From Escherichia coli (GTDB lineage Bacteria; Pseudomonadota; Gammaproteobacteria; Enterobacterales; Enterobacteriaceae), in NCBI RefSeq assembly GCF_003334785.1, contig NZ_QOWV01000002.1: a DNA stretch of 64,000 bases; one strand, 5' to 3'. Under the pieces are notes generated by a model, which had not been told where the DNA came from, made no database searches, and saw only the letters and a list, made by a program, of their open reading frames with translations. This document shows positions 2,594 to 29,615 of this stretch, piece by piece. A program made the translations under genes and the position numbers. Every line of letters starts with the position of its first letter. The first letter of the stretch is position 1.

Positions 2594-3090
2594 CAGTGAT
2601 GACGCTCAATCTCGTTGAAAAACAGCCAGCAGCTATGCGCCGGATAATTGGTAAGCATCTTGCCGTTCCTCGCTGGCAGGATACATGTGATTATTATAAT
2701 CAGATGATGGAGCGCGAACGGTTAACGGTTTGCTTCCATGCTCAGTTAAAACAGCGTCACGCAACGATGTGTTTTGAAGAAATGAACGACGTCGAACGTG
2801 AACGACTGGTATGTGCAATTGATGAATTGCGTGGGGCATTCTCAAAACGCCGTCAGGTTGGCGCAAGTGAGTATGCATATATTAGTTTTTTAACAGTCAG
2901 TCAGCGTCGTACTTTATTTATGCATGCCGGATTGACTGAAAAAGAATTCAACCAGCCATACTGGCGAATTAATGAAGAATCATGTTACTGGCGTGATGCT
3001 TTATTCCGTGCATTACGTGAATTATTCAGCCTGTTTGAGTATGCACCGACAATTCTGACGTCGGTAAAACCAGAGCAATATCTGCATTAA
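2590..3090 (+). CDS. B: P2 B protein (replication, helicase-loading function)
   Basis: MTVMTLNLVEKQPAAMRRIIGKHLAVPRWQDTCDYYNQMMERERL...; 166 aa from this start; position between cox and A. Confidence 0.75.
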   Translation: MTVMTLNLVEKQPAAMRRIIGKHLAVPRWQDTCDYYNQMMERERLTVCFHAQLKQRHATMCFEEMNDVERERLVCAIDELRGAFSKRRQVGASEYAYISFLTVSQRRTLFMHAGLTEKEFNQPYWRINEESCYWRDALFRALRELFSLFEYAPTILTSVKPEQYLH

Positions 3091-3153
3091 GTAATTAACC
3101 AGAGTTTTTAACGCACTTAATCGTGCGGGGCTTCTTTTTGCCTGGAGAAAGTC

Positions 3154-3378
3154 ATGCATACAGTTTCTGAAAATCAGTGCGGTAAATTCGCATTACTGCT
3201 GCAACAGGCCAGAACCGAAGCACAGGCCGACGCTGCGACGCGCTTTTCTTCTCATCTTGACGCCATGATTCGCCACATCACAAAGGCGGAGTTATCCCGA
3301 GTGGAGATAGTCGAGCTGCTCAGTCAGGAGTCGGAAAAATTTCACAATATCGGATTGTCTCGCGGGGAGGTGCTTTGA
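3154..3378 (+). CDS. Hypothetical early protein (P2 orf80 position)
   Basis: ORF with RBS-like spacing in early operon; synteny only. Confidence 0.45.
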
Positions 3379-3680
3379 TGTCCTGTTCTCATTCAGTTGT
3401 ATTACTGAATAACGCCTTAAAAATCGCCGTTATGGAAAATGGCGATTTGTCTCTTATTCAACTTTGTCTTGATAAAGAAAAACGCGACATCACTGAATCT
3501 GTTATCGCGATTTATCAGAATGAATTAAACCTCCTGTCTGATGTGGTCAATTTACTTGTTAAACGCGCTGTATTCCACAAGCAAATTTCCTCCGTGGATG
3601 AACTGACAAAATTAACGACAGAACTTGCCAGTTATTGCGCTGATGTATCCAGGAAACTTAACGATAAAAGGAGCTGGTAA
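3375..3680 (+). CDS. Hypothetical early protein (P2 orf81 position)
   Basis: Start overlaps previous stop (ATGA coupling); synteny only. Confidence 0.45.
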
Positions 3681-3904
3681 TGCCGGACAACGTAGATTTT
3701 ATTCAGGAACAACAGGCTGAATTACTGGAGCGCCAGATTAACGCGGCAAGGGTAAAACATTGCGGTGCTTCTGCGCTGGTTTGCGAAGAGTGTGACGCGC
3801 CAATACCTGCTGCCCGTCGTGCGGCTTACCCGTCAGCCACGCGTTGTGTTTCCTGTCAGTCAGTCTTTGAAGCAAAAAACAAACATTACCGGAGAACGGC
3901 ATGA
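3680..3904 (+). CDS. TraR/DksA-family C4 zinc-finger protein (P2 orf82 position)
   Basis: CEECDAPIPAARRAAYPSATRCVSCQ four-cysteine motif in a 74-aa protein. Confidence 0.6.
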   Translation: MPDNVDFIQEQQAELLERQINAARVKHCGASALVCEECDAPIPAARRAAYPSATRCVSCQSVFEAKNKHYRRTA

Positions 3905-4176
3905 GTATTCGTATTGAAATTGGCGAACGTTATGTCGTTACCAGTGACAGCTTTCAGTTTATTCTCCACGAGAAAAAGAGAGCGGAAAGCGGTAAAAACG
4001 CCGGTCAGGAATGGCTGGCGGTGGTTGGTTATTACCCGAAATTAAGCCAGCTCGTTTCCGGCCTGATGCATCACGATATTCTGACCGGAAGCGCAAAGTC
4101 TTTTGCTGATTTAAACGCGCAGGTTGAGCAACTCAGCAAGCGTTGTTCAGAGGCTTTTGGCTCATATGGCCGTTAA
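3901..4176 (+). CDS. Hypothetical early protein (P2 orf83 position)
   Basis: ORF overlapping A start; synteny only. Confidence 0.45.
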   Translation: MSIRIEIGERYVVTSDSFQFILHEKKRAESGKNAGQEWLAVVGYYPKLSQLVSGLMHHDILTGSAKSFADLNAQVEQLSKRCSEAFGSYGR

Positions 4177-6451
4177 AGCCTCCGGGCGTTTTGTCCCTCC
4201 GTCAGCATTTGCTGCAGGCACCGGTAAGGCGTTTACCGGTGCTTATGCATGGAACGCGCCACGCGAGGCTGTCGGGCGCGAAAGACCCCTTACACGTGAC
4301 GAGATGCGTCAGGTGCAAGGTGTTTTATCCACGATTAACCGCCTGCCTTACTTTTTGCGCTCGCTGTTTACGTCACGCTATGACTACATCCGGCGCAATA
4401 AAAGCCCGGTGCACGGGTTTTATTTCCTCACATCCACTTTTCAGCGTCGTTTATGGCCGCGCATTGAGCGTGTGAATCAGCGCCATGAAATGAACACCGA
4501 CGCGTCGAAGCTGTTTCTGGCTGAGCGTGACCACTATGCGCGCCTGCCGGGAATGAATGACAAGGAGCTGAAAAAGTTTGCCGCCCGTATCTCATCGCAG
4601 CTTTTCATGATGTATGAGGAACTCAGCGATGCCTGGGTGGATGCGCATGGCGAGAAAGAATCGCTGTTTACGGATGAGGCGCAGGCTCACCTCTATGGTC
4701 ATGTTGCTGGCGCTGCACGTGCTTTCAATATTTCCCCGCTTTACTGGAAAAAATACCGTAAAGGACAGATGACCACGAGGCAGGCATATTCTGCAATTGC
4801 CCGTCTGTTTAACGATGAGTGGTGGACTCATCAGCTTAAAGGCCAGCGTATGCGCTGGCATGAAGCGTTACTGATAGCTGTCGGGGAGGTCAATAAAGAC
4901 CGTTCTCCTTATGCCAGTAAACACGCCATTCGTGATGTGCGTGCGCGCCGCCAGGCAAATCTGGAATTTCTTAAATCGTGTGACCTTGAAAACAGGGAAA
5001 CCGGCGAGCGCATCGACCTTATCAGTAAGGTGATGGGCAGTATTTCTAATCCTGAAATTCGCCGGATGGAGCTGATGAACACCATTGCCGGTATTGAGCG
5101 TTACGCCGCCGCAGAGGGTGATGTGGGGATGTTTATCACGCTGACCGCGCCGTCAAAGTATCACCCGACACGTCAGGTCAGAAAAGGCGAAAGTAAAACC
5201 GTTCAGCTAAATTACGGCTGGAACGATGAGGCATTTAATCCAAAGGATGCGCAGCGTTATCTCTGCCGTATCTGGAGCCTGATGCGCACGGCATTCAAGG
5301 ATAATGACTTACAGGTCTACGGTTTGCGTGTCGTCGAGCCACACCACGACGGAACGCCGCACTGGCATATGATGCTTTTTTGTAATCCACGCCAGCGTAA
5401 CCAGATTATTGAAATCATGCGTCGCTACGCGCTCAAAGAGGATGGAGACGAAAGAGGAGCTGCGCGAAACCGTTTTCAGGCAAAACACCTTAACCGGGGC
5501 GGTGCTGCGGGGTATATCGCGAAATACATCTCAAAAAACATCGATGGCTATGCACTGGATGGTCAGCTCGATAACGACACCGGCAGGCCGCTGAAAGACA
5601 CAGCCGCGGCTGTTACCGCATGGGCGTCAACGTGGCGCATACCACAATTTAAAACGGTTGGCCTGCCGACAATGGGGGCTTACCGTGAACTACGCAAATT
5701 GCCCCGCGGCGTCAGCATTGCTGATGAGTTTGACGAGCGCGTCGAGGCTGCACGCGCCGCCGCAGACAGTGGTGATTTTGCGCTGTATATCAGCGCGCAG
5801 GGCGGGGCAAATGTCCCGCGCGATTGTCAGACTGTCAGGGTCGCCCGTAGTCCGTCGGATGACGTTAACGAGTACGAGGAAGAAGTCGAGAGAGTGGTCG
5901 GCATTTACGCGCCGCATCTCGGCGCGCGTCATATTCATATCACCAGAACGACGGACTGGCACATTGTGCCGAAAGTTCCGGTCGTTGAGCCTTTGACTTT
6001 AAAAAGCGGCATCGCCGCGCCTCGGAGTCCTGTCAATAACTGTGGAAAACTCACCGGTGGTGATACTTCGTTACCGGCTCCCACACCTTCTGAGCACGCC
6101 GCAGCAGTGCTTAATCTGGTTGATGACGGTGTTATCGAATGGAGTGACCCGGAGGTCGTGAGGGCGCTCAGAGGTGCATTAAAACACGGTCGGAGAACGC
6201 CAAGTCGTCAGCAAAGAAACGGAAGCCCGTTAAAACCACATGAAATTGCACCATCGGCCAGACTGACCCGGTCGGAAAGAATGCAAATTACCCGTATCCG
6301 CGTTGACCTTGCTCAGAACGGTATCAGGCCGCAGCGATGGGAGCTTGAGGCGCTGGCGCGTGGCGCGACCGTAAATTATGACGGGAAAAAATTCACGTAT
6401 CCGGTCGCTGATGAGTGGCCGGGATTCTCAACAGTAATGGAGTGGACATGA
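4166..6451 (+). CDS. A: P2 A protein, rolling-circle replication initiation endonuclease (761 aa)
   Basis: MAVKASGRFVPPSAFAAGTG... with HUH-type motif region (PHWHMMLF) and active-site Tyr region (GYIAKYISK); length and sequence match P2 gpA as recalled. Confidence 0.85.
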   Translation: MAVKASGRFVPPSAFAAGTGKAFTGAYAWNAPREAVGRERPLTRDEMRQVQGVLSTINRLPYFLRSLFTSRYDYIRRNKSPVHGFYFLTSTFQRRLWPRIERVNQRHEMNTDASKLFLAERDHYARLPGMNDKELKKFAARISSQLFMMYEELSDAWVDAHGEKESLFTDEAQAHLYGHVAGAARAFNISPLYWKKYRKGQMTTRQAYSAIARLFNDEWWTHQLKGQRMRWHEALLIAVGEVNKDRSPYASKHAIRDVRARRQANLEFLKSCDLENRETGERIDLISKVMGSISNPEIRRMELMNTIAGIERYAAAEGDVGMFITLTAPSKYHPTRQVRKGESKTVQLNYGWNDEAFNPKDAQRYLCRIWSLMRTAFKDNDLQVYGLRVVEPHHDGTPHWHMMLFCNPRQRNQIIEIMRRYALKEDGDERGAARNRFQAKHLNRGGAAGYIAKYISKNIDGYALDGQLDNDTGRPLKDTAAAVTAWASTWRIPQFKTVGLPTMGAYRELRKLPRGVSIADEFDERVEAARAAADSGDFALYISAQGGANVPRDCQTVRVARSPSDDVNEYEEEVERVVGIYAPHLGARHIHITRTTDWHIVPKVPVVEPLTLKSGIAAPRSPVNNCGKLTGGDTSLPAPTPSEHAAAVLNLVDDGVIEWSDPEVVRALRGALKHGRRTPSRQQRNGSPLKPHEIAPSARLTRSERMQITRIRVDLAQNGIRPQRWELEALARGATVNYDGKKFTYPVADEWPGFSTVMEWT

Positions 6452-6777
6452 TGGCAAAAATTCACGAGGTAAAGCTGCACGCAAAATATTTCGACCTTGT
6501 ACTGGAAGGAAAGAAACGCGCAGAGTTTCGGAAAAAAGATCGTAATTATGAGCGCGGGGGCACGTTGATTTTGCATGAATGGGTGCAGGGTGTGTTTACG
6601 GGGCGAAAGGTTGAAGCCCGGATAACAGATGTTACTGACCTGTCAGACTGGCTGGAAGATTATGTCTTGCTGCACAGAATACTAGGTGAGATACTGCCGC
6701 TGACTGTCAAGCTGGCAGTATCCTCCACATTTTTTATAAATCTAAGGCGAAGAACGGTGGCAATATATTTGCTTTAA
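6448..6777 (+). CDS. Hypothetical protein (P2 orf91 position)
   Basis: MAKIHEVKLHAKYFDLVLEGKKRAEFRKKDRNYERGG...; start overlaps A stop; follows A as in P2. Confidence 0.5.
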   Translation: MMAKIHEVKLHAKYFDLVLEGKKRAEFRKKDRNYERGGTLILHEWVQGVFTGRKVEARITDVTDLSDWLEDYVLLHRILGEILPLTVKLAVSSTFFINLRRRTVAIYLL

Positions 6778-6815
6778 ATTGTAAATAAGCAAATTATTCT
6801 AAGCCACAAATGATA

Positions 6816-7577
6816 TCAATTGAGTATCGATTTTCGTTCGAATATAACCATAACGCCAAGCGTCAAATGTAAGTCATCTATATGTGATTCGTATTCATAT
6901 TGGTCAGCATCAGGAGGTAGTAAATGCTCTGCTGCTGTAAAAACATCAATTGTAACAGATATATCGTCTGGAATTTCTTCATTTAATTCGGATATGTATT
7001 TTTTATATTTGTTTTTTAATTTCCTTATCATGTCTTCCTTATGGTGGATTGTAGTGCAGTAATTTTTTTTAGTTGAATCATTGTATGAATGGAATGAACA
7101 GTTTAATGCTAGGCCAAGACTTGAATTTCCTGTAGGGCCTGTGTGTTTAAAGTATTCAAGATTTCTTCTTATGTCAGAAAATAAAAGACTTTTACAGGGG
7201 GCATTTCCTTTAACTTCTATTGCACATATTGGAATGTCGAAAAATGGTCTGCTGTCCAATATGGCAATATCAATTCTGCCTGATCTTGTTGTGTTTGTGT
7301 TTTTTCTGACAGTTTTTTTTGAGAATGTTTTTTGGGGGTCAGACCGTTTCGATAAAGGAACTGTTGCATTAATGAATTTATTTGTATGGTACTCAAATAT
7401 AACTTTGTAATCACCATGGCGAAAAGATTTTATTTCTAACAACGATAGACCTATAGATACGGTAGCTACATATTCAGTGTTTATTTTTGCACCAGACCTG
7501 AAATCCATTAAATAAGTTGCGTCGGCTGACTTTTTCATTCCATCTTTTACAGCTTTCACAATATCCATGTTATTCAT
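6816..7577 (-). CDS. tin: Tin-like protein (253 aa), the P2 T-even phage inhibition function
   Basis: 253-aa AT-rich ORF immediately downstream of old in the A-to-cos hotspot, the position of tin in P2. Identity rests on synteny and recalled size, not on a recognised motif. Confidence 0.55.
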   Translation of the reverse strand: MNNMDIVKAVKDGMKKSADATYLMDFRSGAKINTEYVATVSIGLSLLEIKSFRHGDYKVIFEYHTNKFINATVPLSKRSDPQKTFSKKTVRKNTNTTRSGRIDIAILDSRPFFDIPICAIEVKGNAPCKSLLFSDIRRNLEYFKHTGPTGNSSLGLALNCSFHSYNDSTKKNYCTTIHHKEDMIRKLKNKYKKYISELNEEIPDDISVTIDVFTAAEHLLPPDADQYEYESHIDDLHLTLGVMVIFERKSILN

Positions 7578-7751
7578 ATCAACACCTTTTATATTCCAGA
7601 ATTATAAATCTTAATGATTGATTTGTTTGTGTGTTTAGGTTACTAGATTGACGTACTTATAGCACATTCTGATTTTGAAATCACCATCCTTGGGTAAAGC
7701 ACAGCCTATCACTATTGGTTTAGTACTGTGCTGTAATAGTATCAGATTAAG

Positions 7752-9512
7752 TTAAATCCATTTTATGAAATCTTCCATTTCATCATATTTTTTTATTACT
7801 GCTCTAACATCTTTGCTTTCATCACATAAACAATCTAAAAGACTATCCCATTCAGTTTGTTTTTTACCAAATCCATAAACAGCCTCTATATCACCGGATT
7901 TCCATATATAGATTCCGTTATCTTTCAATTTTTGATGTATTTCATGTATATGCTTTTGTGTTTTTTCATGGTTACATATTTTGATGAAGTCTTTGCTTGA
8001 AATGCTTTTGAATGACTCAAAAGTAGTAACTTTTGTATTTAAACTAAGCTCTCCTGAGTTGATTGATTCAATCAAAGCAGTCAATAGATTATCACATTCA
8101 GTACTAAGTAAGTCTTTATGCTCTGTTAATAGAATATTTGATAAGAAATCACAATCAGCTAGAATCCTTGTTTTTATGCCGATGGCATTGATGATTTGTG
8201 ACATCTTAAATAAACTACCCTTACCGTCAACGGCAACAATGCAGATTTTACTCGGGTTGAGTTCATGTCCGTTAATTTTTTTATAAAGTGCATATAGAAC
8301 GTTTGTCTCTGTTTTCCCTTCAACAAGCAAAACTTCTTCAGAAAATAAAAGGTATGATGAATTAGAAAGCGTGAATGCTGAGTGCAATTGCGGTGATGAA
8401 GATTTATATAATTCTTCGATTTTTTCAGATATAGTCTTCCTTGCTATGGTTCCATTAGAATCCTTACAAACCTGAATCGCATTTGCTGCATGCTTTGCAG
8501 AAAGCATACTGGCTGAGTGAGTTGATATTATAACCTGATACCCTGATTCACTTAATGTGACAAGTGATTCTCTGACAGAATTAATGGCTGAAGGGTGTAA
8601 ATATAACTCAGGTTCATCAATGAAAATCAAAGTGTTTGATTTTTTTGATTCGCTGTTTTCTTTTTTTATTTCGGCCAGGTATTGAATTAATGCCATTTGA
8701 ATGGAACGTTGTGTTCCGTGACCAAATCGGCTGATATCTCTCATTACCGGTTCATCTTCCCGAGACTCAAAAACTTTCAGAGTGCCGGATTTAAATATCT
8801 CATCTAATGTCGGTGTGGGAAAGTGTAACTTTACACTTACGTCGGGAAAAAATTGGTTTACTTTTTTATTTACGCCTGAGTCTATTTTATTAAGGCTTTC
8901 TAATCTGTTCTCACCGTTGTGAGAAAGATATTTACCTATTTCTGATATGTTTTTTGAAAATTTTTCTTCGTGTTCTTGTTTTATTTCAGAAACAATTGCG
9001 GAAAGTATCTTTCCTATTGTGGTCGTGTTTTTGCATTTTGTTGAGTCTTCGACAGCGTCAGACATTGCAGGGATATGAATTGGTTCCGGAAATATATTGG
9101 AGATTGCACCATCTATGCCGCCAGGGTTTTTCTTCCACGTGGTACCGTCATATACATCCAGACTTTTTTTGGCTTTTCCTGTTTCCTTATTAAATTCCTG
9201 TCTTCTTGCAAAGGTAAGAGTCCCGTCAATTATAAACGGAGCTATTTTTTGTTGATTCTCTTCTGTTAACAAAGACAGAGTATCATCTGTTATACCTTGA
9301 ATAACGCCTTCAACGGATACGGGGTGTGTAGGATCGTACACATCTGATTCTGAAATCAAAGAGCCATCTAACAGCCACTTAATTGCTAAGATAATATTTG
9401 ATTTTCCTGCGTTATTATAACCAACTAAAGCAGTGAAGGGGCGCAAAATAGCCGATGTTGACTTACAAGAACGAAAGTTGCTAATTGAAACTGAAGCAAG
9501 ACGTACAGTCAT
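7752..9512 (-). CDS. old: Old exclusion protein: OLD-family ATPase/nuclease (586 aa)
   Basis: Walker A LVGYNNAGKSN near the N-terminus, Walker B-like LIFIDEPELYLHP mid-protein, C-terminal nuclease-type region; 586 aa and position next to cos match P2 Old. Confidence 0.8.
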   Translation of the reverse strand: MTVRLASVSISNFRSCKSTSAILRPFTALVGYNNAGKSNIILAIKWLLDGSLISESDVYDPTHPVSVEGVIQGITDDTLSLLTEENQQKIAPFIIDGTLTFARRQEFNKETGKAKKSLDVYDGTTWKKNPGGIDGAISNIFPEPIHIPAMSDAVEDSTKCKNTTTIGKILSAIVSEIKQEHEEKFSKNISEIGKYLSHNGENRLESLNKIDSGVNKKVNQFFPDVSVKLHFPTPTLDEIFKSGTLKVFESREDEPVMRDISRFGHGTQRSIQMALIQYLAEIKKENSESKKSNTLIFIDEPELYLHPSAINSVRESLVTLSESGYQVIISTHSASMLSAKHAANAIQVCKDSNGTIARKTISEKIEELYKSSSPQLHSAFTLSNSSYLLFSEEVLLVEGKTETNVLYALYKKINGHELNPSKICIVAVDGKGSLFKMSQIINAIGIKTRILADCDFLSNILLTEHKDLLSTECDNLLTALIESINSGELSLNTKVTTFESFKSISSKDFIKICNHEKTQKHIHEIHQKLKDNGIYIWKSGDIEAVYGFGKKQTEWDSLLDCLCDESKDVRAVIKKYDEMEDFIKWI

Positions 9513-9894: not shown

Positions 9895-10929
9895 TCAGCC
9901 GTTGTCTGTGTCCAGTGAGTAGTTTTTAAAGCGGATGACCTCCTGACCGAGCCAGCCGTTTATTTCCCGAATCCTGTCCTGTAACGGGATAAGCTCATTG
10001 CGGACAAAGACCTTTGCCACTTTCTCAATATCACCCAGCGACCCGACGTTCTCCGGCTTGCCGCCCATCAACTGAAAGGGGATGCGGTGCGCGTCCAGCA
10101 GGTCAGCGGCGCTGGCTTTTTTGATATTAAAAAAATCGTCCTTCGTTGCCACTTCACTGAGCGGGATAATTTTAATGCCGTCAGCTTTCCCCTGCGGGGC
10201 ATAGAGAAACAGATTTTTAAAGTTGTTGCGGCCTTTTGACTTCACCATGTTTTCGCGAAGCATTTCGATATCGTTGCGATCCTGCACGGCATCGGTGACG
10301 TACATGATATATCCGGCATGAGCGCCGTTTTCGTAATACTTGCGGCGGAACAGCGTGGCCGACTCATTCAGCCAGGCAGAATTAAGGGCGCTGAGATATT
10401 CCGGCAGGCCGTACAGCTCCTGATTAATATCCGGCTCCAGCAGGTGAAACACGGAGCCGGGCGCGAAGGCTGTCGGCTCGTTGAAGGACGGCACCCACCA
10501 GTAAACATCCTCCTCCACACCACGGCGGGTATATTTTGCCGGTGAGGTTTCCAGTCTGATGACCTTACCGGTGGTGCTGTAACGCTTTTCCAGAAACGCA
10601 TTACCGAACACCAGAAAATCCAGCACAAAGCGGCTGAAATCCTGCTGGGAAAGCCACGGGTGCGGAATAAACGTTGAAGCCAGAATATTACGTTTGACGT
10701 AAATCGGTGAGCTGTGATGCACGGCAGCACGCAGGCTTTTTGCCAGACCGGTAAAGCTGACCGGTGGCTCATACCATCTGCCGTTACTGATGCACTCGAC
10801 GTAATCCAGAATGTCACGGCGGTCGAGTACCGGCACCGGCTCACCAAAGGTGAATGCCTCCATTTTTGGGGCACTGGCAGTCATTTTTTTTGCCGCAGGT
10901 TGCGGTGTTTTCCCTTTTTTCTTGCTCAT
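9895..10929 (-). CDS. Q: Portal protein gpQ (344 aa)
   Basis: Size, order (Q-P divergent from O-N-M-L) and sequence match P2 Q. Confidence 0.85.
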   Translation of the reverse strand: MSKKKGKTPQPAAKKMTASAPKMEAFTFGEPVPVLDRRDILDYVECISNGRWYEPPVSFTGLAKSLRAAVHHSSPIYVKRNILASTFIPHPWLSQQDFSRFVLDFLVFGNAFLEKRYSTTGKVIRLETSPAKYTRRGVEEDVYWWVPSFNEPTAFAPGSVFHLLEPDINQELYGLPEYLSALNSAWLNESATLFRRKYYENGAHAGYIMYVTDAVQDRNDIEMLRENMVKSKGRNNFKNLFLYAPQGKADGIKIIPLSEVATKDDFFNIKKASAADLLDAHRIPFQLMGGKPENVGSLGDIEKVAKVFVRNELIPLQDRIREINGWLGQEVIRFKNYSLDTDNG

Positions 10930-12701
10930 CAGTAAAACTCCAGAATGGTGGATGTCAGCGGGGTGCTGATACCGGCGGTGAGTGGCTCATTTAACAGGGC
11001 GTGCATGGTCGCCCAGGCGAGGTCGGCGTGGCTGGCTTCCTCGCTGCGGCTGGCCTCATAGGTGGCGCTGCGTCCGCTGCTGGTCATGGTCTTGCGGATA
11101 GCCATAAACGAGCTGGTGATGTCGGTGGCGCTGACGTCATATTCCAGACAGCCACGACGGATAACGTCTTTTGCCTTGAGCACCATTGCGGTTTTCATTT
11201 CCGGTGTGTAGCGGATATCGCGCGCGGCGGGATAGAACGAGCGCACGAGCTGGAACACGCCGACACCGAGGCCGGTGGCATCAATACCGATGTATTCGAC
11301 GTTGTATTTTTCGGTGAGTTTGCGGATGGATTCAGCCTGGGTGGCAAAGTCCATGCCTTTCCACTGGTGACGCTCAAGTATTCTGAATTTGCCACCGGCC
11401 ACCACCGGCGGTGCCAGCACCACGCATCCGGCGCTGTCGCCACGGTGTGACGGGTCGTAACCAATCCATACCGGGCGGGAGCCGAACGGATTGGCGGCAA
11501 ACGGCGCATAGTCTTCCCATTCTTCCAGCGTGTCGACCATGCAGCGTTGCAGCTCCTCGAACGGGAACACCGACGCCTTGTCGTCCACAAATTCACACAT
11601 GAACAGGTTTTTAAAATCGTCGGCGCTGTTTTCACGTTTGAGCTGCTCAATGTCGAACAGCGTGCAGCCGCCTTTCAGGGCATCCTCAATGGTGACAATC
11701 TGCCGCCACTGGCCGTCCGCACAGAGAAGCCCACCGGCAAGGGCGTTATGACTGACGTCGATTTCCACGCGTTCAGCGGCGCTGGCGCGTCCCCGGTTAA
11801 ACAGTTCACCCGACCAGAACGGGTAGGCGTCGTGCGCCAGCGTGGACGGGGTGGAGAAATAGGTCGAGCGCAGGTGACTCTGTGAGGCCATACCTGATGC
11901 CACCTTACGCAGTACCTGAAAATTCGGGATCCAGAAAATCTCATCGACGTACAGGTCGCCGTTATGGCTCTGTGCGGTGTTGGAGTTGGTGCCGAGAAAA
12001 ATCAGTTTTGCACCGTTATTGCCCAGGACAATCGGGTCACCGGTCAGGTCAACGTCAACCAGCCGGGCAAAGGCGATGATGTATTCGCGGAACACATACG
12101 CCTGCGTTTTACTGGCCGACAGAAAAATCTGGTTATGACCGGTTTTCAGGGCGCGCAGCAGCGCCTCGCGGGAAAAATAAAACGTCGCGCCAATCTGGCG
12201 GGATTTCAGGATATCGCGGATGCGGTGCTCAAGCCCGGCGCGATACCAGTGCAACTGATATTCGAAAGACTGCTCAAAGAAAATCTGCTCCAGCTTTTCG
12301 ATGGCCTCGTCACTGAAAAAATTCTTTTTCGGTTTGCGGCGTTCGCCTTTGTTGCGGTTAGCGACGTTCGGATTAAGGTCTGCCTCGTTGCCGGTCTGGC
12401 TGTAACGGTTGACCCGTGCCAGTCGTTCAATCTGGCGTCCCAGCAGGTCAATTTCCTTGAAGTCCCCGCCGGTTTTCTGCGGTTTGATGATGAGCTGGGT
12501 CAGCCGCGCTTCCAGACTCATTTCGACACGGCTGATGGGAGCAACGCTGTCCCAGCCGTCGCGCTGTTTCCAGCTCTGCACCGTCGGGCGTTTCATCTGC
12601 AACATGGCGGCAATCTGCGGCACGGAAAACCCCTGCCAGTACAGCAGCGCCGCCTGACGACGCGGGTCGTGTAAAAGAGTGGTGTCTGTGGTGATGGTCA
12701 T
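10929..12701 (-). CDS. P: Terminase large (ATPase) subunit gpP (590 aa)
   Basis: MTITTDTTLLHDPRRQAALLYWQGF...; start trimmed from the longer track ORF to give 590 aa. Confidence 0.85.
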   Translation of the reverse strand: MTITTDTTLLHDPRRQAALLYWQGFSVPQIAAMLQMKRPTVQSWKQRDGWDSVAPISRVEMSLEARLTQLIIKPQKTGGDFKEIDLLGRQIERLARVNRYSQTGNEADLNPNVANRNKGERRKPKKNFFSDEAIEKLEQIFFEQSFEYQLHWYRAGLEHRIRDILKSRQIGATFYFSREALLRALKTGHNQIFLSASKTQAYVFREYIIAFARLVDVDLTGDPIVLGNNGAKLIFLGTNSNTAQSHNGDLYVDEIFWIPNFQVLRKVASGMASQSHLRSTYFSTPSTLAHDAYPFWSGELFNRGRASAAERVEIDVSHNALAGGLLCADGQWRQIVTIEDALKGGCTLFDIEQLKRENSADDFKNLFMCEFVDDKASVFPFEELQRCMVDTLEEWEDYAPFAANPFGSRPVWIGYDPSHRGDSAGCVVLAPPVVAGGKFRILERHQWKGMDFATQAESIRKLTEKYNVEYIGIDATGLGVGVFQLVRSFYPAARDIRYTPEMKTAMVLKAKDVIRRGCLEYDVSATDITSSFMAIRKTMTSSGRSATYEASRSEEASHADLAWATMHALLNEPLTAGISTPLTSTILEFY

Positions 12702-12874
12702 GAATACCTCGCCGTGATGAATACACGGCAAGGCTACTGAGTCGCGCCCCGCGATTCGCTAAGGTGCTGTTGTGTCAGTGATAAGCCATCCGGGACTGAT
12801 GGCGGAGGATGCGCATCGTCGGGAAACTGATGCCGACATGTGACTCCTCTAATCACTATTCAGGACTCCTGACA

Positions 12875-13729
12875 ATGGCAAAAAAAGTCTCAAAATTCTT
12901 TCGTATCGGCGTTGAGGGTGACACCTGTGACGGGCGTGTCATCAGTGCGCAGGATATTCAGGAAATGGCCGAAACCTTTGACCCGCGAGTCTATGGTTGC
13001 CGCATTAACCTGGAACATCTGCGCGGCATCCTGCCTGACGGTATTTTTAAGCGTTATGGCGATGTGGTCGAACTGAAGGCCGAAAAGATTGACGATGATT
13101 CGGTGCTGAAAGGCAAATGGGCGCTGTTTGCGAAAATCACCCCGACCGATGACCTTATCGCGATGAACAAGGCCGCGCAGAAGGTCTACACCTCAATGGA
13201 AATTCAGCCGAACTTTGCCAATACCGGCAAATGTTATCTGGTGGGTCTGGCCGTCACCGATGACCCGGCAAGCCTCGGCACGGAATACCTGGAATTCTGC
13301 CGCACGGCAAAACACAACCCTCTGAACCGCTTCAAATTAAGCCCTGAAAACCTGATTTCAGTGGCAACGCCTGTTGAGCTGGAATTTGAAGACCTGCCTG
13401 AAACCGTGTTCACCGCCCTGACCGAAAAGGTGAAGTCCATTTTTGGCCGCAAACAGGCCAGCGATGACGCCCGTCTGAATGACGTGCATGAAGCGGTGAC
13501 CGCTGTTGCTGAACATGTGCAGGAAAAACTGAGCGCCACTGAGCAGCGCCTCGCTGAGATGGAAACCGCTTTTTCCGCACTTAAGCAGGATGTGACTGAC
13601 AGGGCGGATGAAACCAGCCAGGCATTCACCCGCCTGAAAAACAGTCTCGACCACACCGAAAGTCTGACCCAGCAGCGCCGCAGCAAGGCCACCGGTGGTG
13701 GCGGTGACGCCCTGATGACGAACTGCTGA
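12875..13729 (+). CDS. O: Capsid scaffolding protein gpO (284 aa)
   Basis: MAKKVSKFFRIGVEGDTCDGRVISAQDIQEMAETFDPRVYGCRINLEH...; position and size match P2 O. Confidence 0.8.
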   Translation: MAKKVSKFFRIGVEGDTCDGRVISAQDIQEMAETFDPRVYGCRINLEHLRGILPDGIFKRYGDVVELKAEKIDDDSVLKGKWALFAKITPTDDLIAMNKAAQKVYTSMEIQPNFANTGKCYLVGLAVTDDPASLGTEYLEFCRTAKHNPLNRFKLSPENLISVATPVELEFEDLPETVFTALTEKVKSIFGRKQASDDARLNDVHEAVTAVAEHVQEKLSATEQRLAEMETAFSALKQDVTDRADETSQAFTRLKNSLDHTESLTQQRRSKATGGGGDALMTNC

Positions 13730-15647: not shown

Positions 15648-16076
15648 GTGAGGGTGACCGGACTTATTGAATCGCTGTCACCGTCAGGGCGTCGGCGACT
15701 GAGCGCCGAACTGGCGAAACGTCTGCGGCAGAGTCAGCAGCGCCGGGTGATGGCACAGAAAGCCCCGGACGGCACACCCTACGCACCACGCCAGCAGCAG
15801 AGCGCCAGAAAAAAGACCGATCGCGTTAAGCGAAAAATGTTTGCGAAACTTATCACCAGTCGTTTTTTGCATATCCGCGCCAGCCCGGAACAGGCATCAA
15901 TGGAGTTTTTCGGCGGGAAGTCACCGAAAATCGCCAGCGTGCATCAGTTCGGTCTGTCGGAAGAAACCCGGAAAGACGGTAAGAAAATTGATTATCCGGC
16001 GCGTCCTCTGCTCGGCTTTACCGGTGAGGATGTGCAGATGATTGAAGAGATTATCCTGGCTCACCTTGAGCGTTAG
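15648..16076 (+). CDS. L: Head completion protein gpL (GTG start assumed)
   Basis: ORF in the same frame directly after M; last recognisable P2 head gene before the replaced segment. Confidence 0.7.
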   Translation: MRVTGLIESLSPSGRRRLSAELAKRLRQSQQRRVMAQKAPDGTPYAPRQQQSARKKTDRVKRKMFAKLITSRFLHIRASPEQASMEFFGGKSPKIASVHQFGLSEETRKDGKKIDYPARPLLGFTGEDVQMIEEIILAHLER

Positions 16077-16932: not shown

Positions 16933-17015
16933 TACGCTCTCCTTGAATGTTGTCTGGTGGTTCTACAAATGAATCCAGATAGCATAACTTTTATATATTG
17001 TGCAATCTCACATGC

Positions 17016-18908: not shown

Positions 18909-19512
18909 TTCGCGACTGCTGCCGACTGGCTCATCACCGCTTGAAGTCGCCGCCGCAAAAGCCTGTGCGGAAATTGAAAAAACGCCGGTCAGTATTCGTG
19001 AGCTGTGGAACCCGGACACCTGCCCGGCAAATCTGCTGCCGTGGCTGGCGTGGTCATTTTCGGTCGACAGGTGGGATGATAAGTGGCCGGAAGCGACAAA
19101 ACGCGCTGTTATCCGCGATGCGTATTTCATTCACTGCCATAAGGGCACTATTGGTGCGATTCGCCGTGTGGTGGAGCCGCTCGGCTATCTGATTGAGGTG
19201 AGGGAGTGGTGGCAGCTCAACGAGGAGCCGGGGACGTTCCGCATCGTTGTTGGCGTGCTTGAGCAGGGTATTACCGAGGAAATGTATCAGGAGCTGGAGC
19301 GCCTCGTTGCTGATGCAAAACCGGCGAGCCGCCATCTGACGGGACTGGCTATCAGTTTAAGTACAACCGGCAACATTTTTGCCGGTGCGGGATGCTATCA
19401 CGGTGACGCCCTGACGGTTTATCCCTACACCCCGGAGGCCATTATTGTCGGAGGGGATTATTTCCCGGCCTCGGCCATTCATTTAATTGATAACCTGAGA
19501 GTAAACGCATGA
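18901..19512 (+). CDS. I: Baseplate protein gpI
   Basis: MSDSRLLPTGSSPLEVAAAKACAEIEKTPVSIRELWNPDTCPANLLPWLAW...; order J-I-H. Confidence 0.8.
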   Translation: MSDSRLLPTGSSPLEVAAAKACAEIEKTPVSIRELWNPDTCPANLLPWLAWSFSVDRWDDKWPEATKRAVIRDAYFIHCHKGTIGAIRRVVEPLGYLIEVREWWQLNEEPGTFRIVVGVLEQGITEEMYQELERLVADAKPASRHLTGLAISLSTTGNIFAGAGCYHGDALTVYPYTPEAIIVGGDYFPASAIHLIDNLRVNA

Positions 19513-29588: not shown

Positions 29589-29615
29589 AAAAAATAAGCC
29601 CGTGTAAGGGAGATT
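29589..29615. other. Prophage attachment core (attR), AAAAAATAAGCCCGTGTAAGGGAGATT
   Basis: 27-bp sequence matching the P2 att core as I recall it; coincides with the terminator/3' end of cyaR. Confidence 0.6.

Follow-up and report, generated by a model that had tools for sequence, protein, structure and literature searches.

A 173-bp spacer matching the PP/PO late control region of phage P2 in an Escherichia coli prophage

The spacer at positions 12702–12874 of the window (the whole 64,000-nucleotide stretch of Escherichia coli contig NZ_QOWV01000002.1, assembly GCF_003334785.1, that was analysed) separates two divergently transcribed operons. The initial annotation had expected Ogr-dependent late promoters here, and had left their sites blank for want of a clean TGT-N12-ACA dyad. 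The bounds that it gave for the spacer are exact, as direct reading of the start codons places the ATG of P at 12699–12701 (minus strand) and the ATG of O at 12875–12877; the 173 bp between them, to which no strand is assigned, are identical at 173 of 173 positions (100%) to positions 2994–3166 of phage P2 (AF063097, = NC_001895). Around the spacer, the window aligned with P2 1–5949 at 97.9% identity, which identifies the flanking genes as P and O of P2: the gene for the large terminase subunit, P (10929–12701, minus strand, aligned with P2 P at 1221–2993), is the first of the leftward P-Q operon, and that for the capsid scaffold, O (12875–13729, plus strand, aligned with P2 O at 3167–4021), is the first of the rightward operon. 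Over its full 64 kb, the window gave five blocks of alignment with P2, at 95–99.7% identity, and thus carries a P2-type prophage. The region lies between P-Q and O-N-M, that is, 5′ of the morphogenetic (late) operons, where late promoters belong. On this identity, the spacer is almost certainly the PP/PO control region of phage P2, and the expectation that it holds Ogr-dependent late promoters is supported both by the match at all 173 positions and by the annotation of the P2 record. The feature is an ordinary one, already known and described, and it is widespread: the spacer was present in 1506 of 5426 complete E. coli genomes, with 1427 of the 1509 matching records at least 99% identical.

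The prophage around this region has suffered considerable damage. A 1250-bp insertion sequence of the IS3 family, at 959–2208, disrupts cox, with which the early operon begins; the element is flanked by a 3-bp target duplication (ACA), its terminal repeats start TGAAGTGGT, and it contains two overlapping transposase frames. The element resembles IS911. We would expect the insertion to have a polar effect on the early operon and to prevent excision. In addition, P2 positions 5950–8942 are missing, with the loss of L, X, the holin gene Y, the endolysin gene K, lysA, lysB, lysC, R and the first 28 bases of S, so that the downstream operon cannot be O-N-M-L, as had been stated; that reading is wrong for this copy. 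The deletion junction lies at approximately 15652–15657, with short microhomology (GGTGA / GCTGA), and was contiguous in only one of the 5426 complete E. coli genomes, at 97.2% identity. Judged by its gene content, with cox interrupted and L to R deleted, the prophage is defective, and the deletion leaves it unable to bring about lysis or to finish the assembly of heads and tails. The first position of the window is within int of the prophage (P2 25122), and attL is therefore outside the window. The right end is marked by the P2 att core, AAAAAATAAGCCCGTGTAAGGGAGATT (window 29589–29615), the prophage ending at about 29615; it adjoins yegQ-baeR-baeS, and the sequence after the core is E. coli chromosome, in the order yegQ-baeR-yegP-baeS, 100% identical to several strains.

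The state of the prophage bears on whether the promoters would ever fire in this strain. Since the prophage is defective, this copy may be unable to induce Ogr unless a helper or a satellite is present, and one reading is that the region is an intact yet silent relic in this host, its cis elements functional and firing only with an activator supplied by a satellite (P4 delta) or by a second P2-like phage. The insertion in cox favours such silence, as does the deletion of the lysis genes, L, X and R with its nearly unique junction; the ogr gene is, however, intact, and the reading concerns activity in the host rather than the identity of the element, so that it is compatible with assignment of the spacer as the PP/PO region. 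We consider a silent relic possible, if rather improbable, and infer that PP and PO may be active in this particular strain.

The positions of the transcription starts were carried over from the P2 record, which places the start of the P operon at 3016 (minus strand), that of the O operon at 3127 (plus strand) and an activator site at 3057–3087; the offset between P2 and window coordinates is +9708. The PP start thus falls at 12724 (minus strand), giving a leader of 23 nucleotides, and the PO start at 12835 (plus strand), giving one of 40 nucleotides, with 111 bp between the two. The region is therefore homologous, at all 173 positions, to a pair of late promoters whose starts are recorded as mapped. 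The placing of the PO start also settles the beginning of O: an in-frame ATG at 12809 had led the program-made list of open reading frames to give O 306 amino acids, but this codon lies upstream of the PO start and is thus off the mRNA, so that the real O start is the ATG at 12875 (284 amino acids), as in P2.

Upstream of each start, a putative −10 hexamer can be recognized at −12 to −7. For PP, this is TAGCCT on the minus strand (AGGCTA on the plus strand, 12731–12736), invariant in nine of nine aligned phages; for PO, it is GAAACT on the plus strand (12823–12828), lying within a GGAAACT that is invariant in the same nine phages and also present in Erwinia phage ENT90. Each hexamer agrees with TATAAT at three of six positions, and the −35 regions of both promoters are poor, so that PP and PO both have the combination of a recognizable −10 and a poor −35 that is typical of a P2-type late promoter. 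A generic scan for sigma-70 promoters and terminators found neither promoter at the PP or the PO start; the sole match of its sigma-70 part, at 12869–12896, overlaps the O start codon and is irrelevant. The poor −35 regions and the failure of the scan to detect either promoter fit a dependence on an activator. That PP and PO are instead ordinary constitutive sigma-70 promoters in need of no activator, as the plausible −10 hexamers might suggest, is scarcely credible given the poor −35 regions, the empty scan and the activator dependence described in the literature and in the P2 and 186 records.

The activator site itself is annotated in the P2 record as a misc_feature (3057–3087, ‘activator binding site; pO, pP promoters’), and it corresponds to window positions 12765–12795, spanning −70 to −40 of PO and −71 to −41 of PP. 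Its core is an imperfect dyad, TGTGTCAGTGATAAGCCA (12771–12788), which reads TGT-N12-CCA and so differs from TGT-N12-ACA by a single mismatch, with five of the six specified bases in agreement; the right half is the degenerate one, with CCA instead of ACA. The centre of the dyad, at 12779.5, is exactly 55.5 bp from the PP start and from the PO start. Because it is equidistant from the two, a single site can occupy the canonical position near −55 for both divergent promoters, and we infer that one Ogr-bound dyad would serve both PP and PO here.

The lack of a clean dyad reported in the initial annotation is real, as an exact search of the window for TGT-N12-ACA found 11 matches, all of them outside the spacer, and the site was overlooked because it is imperfect. 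The sites that had been left blank can now be placed, in the form of one common imperfect dyad and not of one dyad per promoter. When a single mismatch was allowed, two matches appeared in the spacer, namely TGT-N12-CCA at 12771–12788 and TAT-N12-ACA at 12857–12874, but across the whole window this search returned 267 matches against 284 expected, so that the loose motif is not enriched and does not discriminate. As it has no statistical weight, the site at 12771–12788 is identified by its homology to the mapped P2 site, its geometry and its conservation, and not by a motif count. The more specific pattern TTGTG-N11-CCA matched only twice in the 64-kb window, once at 12770, in the PP/PO site, and once at 22792, in the PF site that precedes the F operon. 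Both are annotated late-promoter sites; since shuffled sequences would be expected to give 2.97 matches, only the location of the two is informative.

The second one-mismatch match, TATTCAGGACTCCTGACA at 12857–12874, might suggest that each promoter has its own activator site, with a second Ogr site in the spacer beside that at 12771–12788, particularly as it is kept in eight of the nine aligned phages. Relative to PO, however, it occupies +22 to +39, within the mRNA leader, and the PP start is 133 to 150 bp away. Its conservation is explained by the fact that it includes the ribosome-binding site, immediately 5′ of the O start codon, and we rejected it as an activator site. Furthermore, the P2 and 186 records each annotate one common activator site, and the dyad at 12771–12788 is, apart from the two −10 regions, the only upstream block that is invariant in the nine phages. 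A separate site for each promoter is thus very improbable, and the single shared dyad is the reading that we retain.

Other features of the leaders were considered. The ribosome-binding region of O contains a perfect 13-bp palindrome, TCAGGACTCCTGA (12860–12872), which overlaps the O Shine–Dalgarno sequence and is identical in eight of the nine aligned phages; the z-score for the fold of this leader was −0.33. A structured RNA or riboswitch was rejected for both leaders, since an Rfam search of 12400–13200 gave no match at E ≤ 1 and the leader folds were no more stable than those of shuffled sequences (z = −0.33 and −0.20). Around the PP start and leader there is an inverted repeat of 10 nucleotides, CCTCGCCGTG / CACGGCAAGG (12707–12716 / 12724–12733); this is probably not a conserved element, as the two arms are less complementary in the 186-type sequences of the alignment.

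Conservation among P2-like phages was examined in an alignment of nine spacers: the one studied here, which is identical to that of P2, and those of 186, PSP3, EtG, a Yersinia pestis phage, E. coli phage 613R3, SW9, a Klebsiella phage and Yersinia enterocolitica phage YenM_56.17. The mean column identity was 58%, and within this otherwise variable spacer four blocks are invariant in all nine phages: AGGCTA (12731–12736), at the PP −10; GCTGTTGTG (12766–12774), in the left half of the activator site; CA (12787–12788), in its right half; and GGAAACT (12822–12828), in the PO −10 region. In Yersinia phage YenM_56.17 and Klebsiella phage Kp4871-3, the orthologous place is occupied by a perfect TGT-N12-ACA, which in Kp4871-3 is part of a longer dyad, GTTGTG-N10-CACAAC. 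The right half CCA is common in P2 and 186, being found also in the P2 PF site and in both annotated 186 B sites (p12/pV and pJ), and over six sites, from four phages and of three promoter types, TTGTG-N12-CA is invariant.

Among more distant relatives, the arrangement is looser. Erwinia phage ENT90 (988–1132) has no TGT-N(11–13)-ACA with at most one mismatch, and it retains the AGGCTA and GGGAAACT blocks; in KS14 the only match to TGT-N(11–13)-ACA (at most one mismatch) is approximately 20 bp away from the start codon of the terminase gene; and Aeromonas phage LPM4 (1049–1067) has a perfect central palindrome with TGT-N13-ACA. In LPM4 and ENT90, which are more distant P2-like phages, the divergent layout of terminase and scaffold genes is kept and the central element is different. 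The deviations in ENT90, KS14 and LPM4 indicate that the N12 rule is not universal in the family, and from these sequences the spacing of the activator site seems to vary across P2-like phages.

Two further sites of the same regulon are found in the window. The PF activator site (22787–22815, plus strand) corresponds to P2 17555–17583, with the core TTGTGTCATCCCTTAACCA at 22792–22810. The window from 19331 to 22804 does not align with P2 12624–17571 (the end of I, the tail-fibre genes H and G, and fun(Z)), and the right boundary of this stretch is located within the PF activator site, which is unlike P2 in its left half but keeps TTGTG-N11-CCA (22792–22810). The PV activator site (16947–16974, plus strand) corresponds to P2 10239–10266, in a promoter region identical at 130 of 131 positions; the one base that differs from P2 within the site lies in its spacer part (TGGTGGTT vs TGGTAGTT). 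The PV site departs from TGT-N12-ACA, reading TGT-N11-ACA or, in the other register, TGT-N12-CAA.

The cognate activator is encoded by the same element. The intact ogr gene (29268–29486, plus strand) specifies a protein of 72 amino acids that is identical to P2 Ogr at 72 of 72 positions and scores 177.6 bits against the NCBIfam equivalog NF007241 (cut-off 116); the translation shows a C-X2-C-X22-C-X4-C motif, as befits a C4 zinc-finger activator, and the product would act in trans on PP and PO. Ogr is described as a small zinc-binding protein whose targets are conserved inverted repeats with centres near −55, and activation by it needs contact with the alpha subunit of RNA polymerase (PMC3152322); for P2, a dependence of transcription in vivo on both Ogr and this subunit is known from the literature. 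The consensus TGT-N12-ACA has been given for the P2 promoters PP, PO, PV and PF (PMC3931495), and in phage Smp131 the PP′- and PO′-like elements have been placed at the same coordinates (PMC3931495), which again implies a common site. Statements about activator binding and footprints rest here on the GenBank annotations of P2 and 186 and on these two papers as secondary citations, and for the start sites and the alpha contact we likewise rely on published work and on the two phage records; the identity, geometry and conservation of the spacer and the presence of ogr were determined in this work.

These elements suggest the following mechanism. Two divergent sigma-70 promoters, with recognizable −10 and poor −35 elements, would start transcription at 12724 (minus strand) and 12835 (plus strand), and Ogr would bind the single imperfect dyad at 12771–12788, between the promoters, at −55.5 from both starts; the related activators 186 B and satellite P4 delta would be expected to bind the same site. 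The bound activator would recruit RNA polymerase through the C-terminal domain of the alpha subunit, in the style of a class I activator, and the outcome would be expression of P-Q on the leftward side (terminase and portal) and of O-N-M and following genes on the rightward side (scaffold, capsid and small terminase). With only one half-degenerate dyad midway between the starts, it is conceivable, although we think it quite unlikely, that an Ogr oligomer might serve one RNA polymerase at a time, so that PP and PO would alternate, and that the asymmetry of the dyad (a good TTGTG and a weak CCA) might set the ratio of terminase and portal transcripts to capsid transcripts.

In comparison with P2 PP/PO, the spacer bases, flanking genes, starts, activator site and Ogr are the same and there is no difference inside the spacer; this copy differs in its downstream O operon, which is without L to R, and in the insertion sequence in cox. 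The p12/pV region of phage 186 has the same layout, with terminase and scaffold operons diverging from one B-protein site, annotated in the 186 record for ‘activation of pV and p12 promoters’ and falling in the alignment columns of window positions 12769–12788. Both TTGTG-N11-CCA and the two −10 blocks are kept in 186 as they are in the spacer of P2 and of this prophage, whereas the 186 spacer is 8 bp shorter, the activator is B and not Ogr, and the identity is approximately 80% over the 801-bp query (window 12400–13200). The delta-activated promoters Psid and PLL of satellite P4 belong to the same activator family (Ogr/B/delta) and have the same TGT-N12-ACA near −55 (PMC3931495); they are absent from this window, and the likeness is taken from the literature. 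Class I activation by CRP, as at lac, offers a working analogy, in that an upstream dyad would be combined with contact to the C-terminal domain of the alpha subunit of RNA polymerase, the alpha contact of Ogr being that reported in PMC3152322. The two proteins have unrelated folds, Ogr being a C4 zinc finger, and the Ogr site lies near −55 rather than at the −61.5 of CRP; in contrast to CRP at lac, one site would here serve two opposite promoters.

The transfer from P2 allows the region to be labelled with confidence, with both starts, both −10 elements and the common Ogr site in place, and it has little import beyond annotation. It does bear on how such sites are sought: as the form TTGTG-N11-CCA is present at PP/PO and PF of P2 and at both annotated B sites of 186, a strict scan for TGT-N12-ACA misses these real sites, while a scan that allows one mismatch yields hundreds of chance matches.
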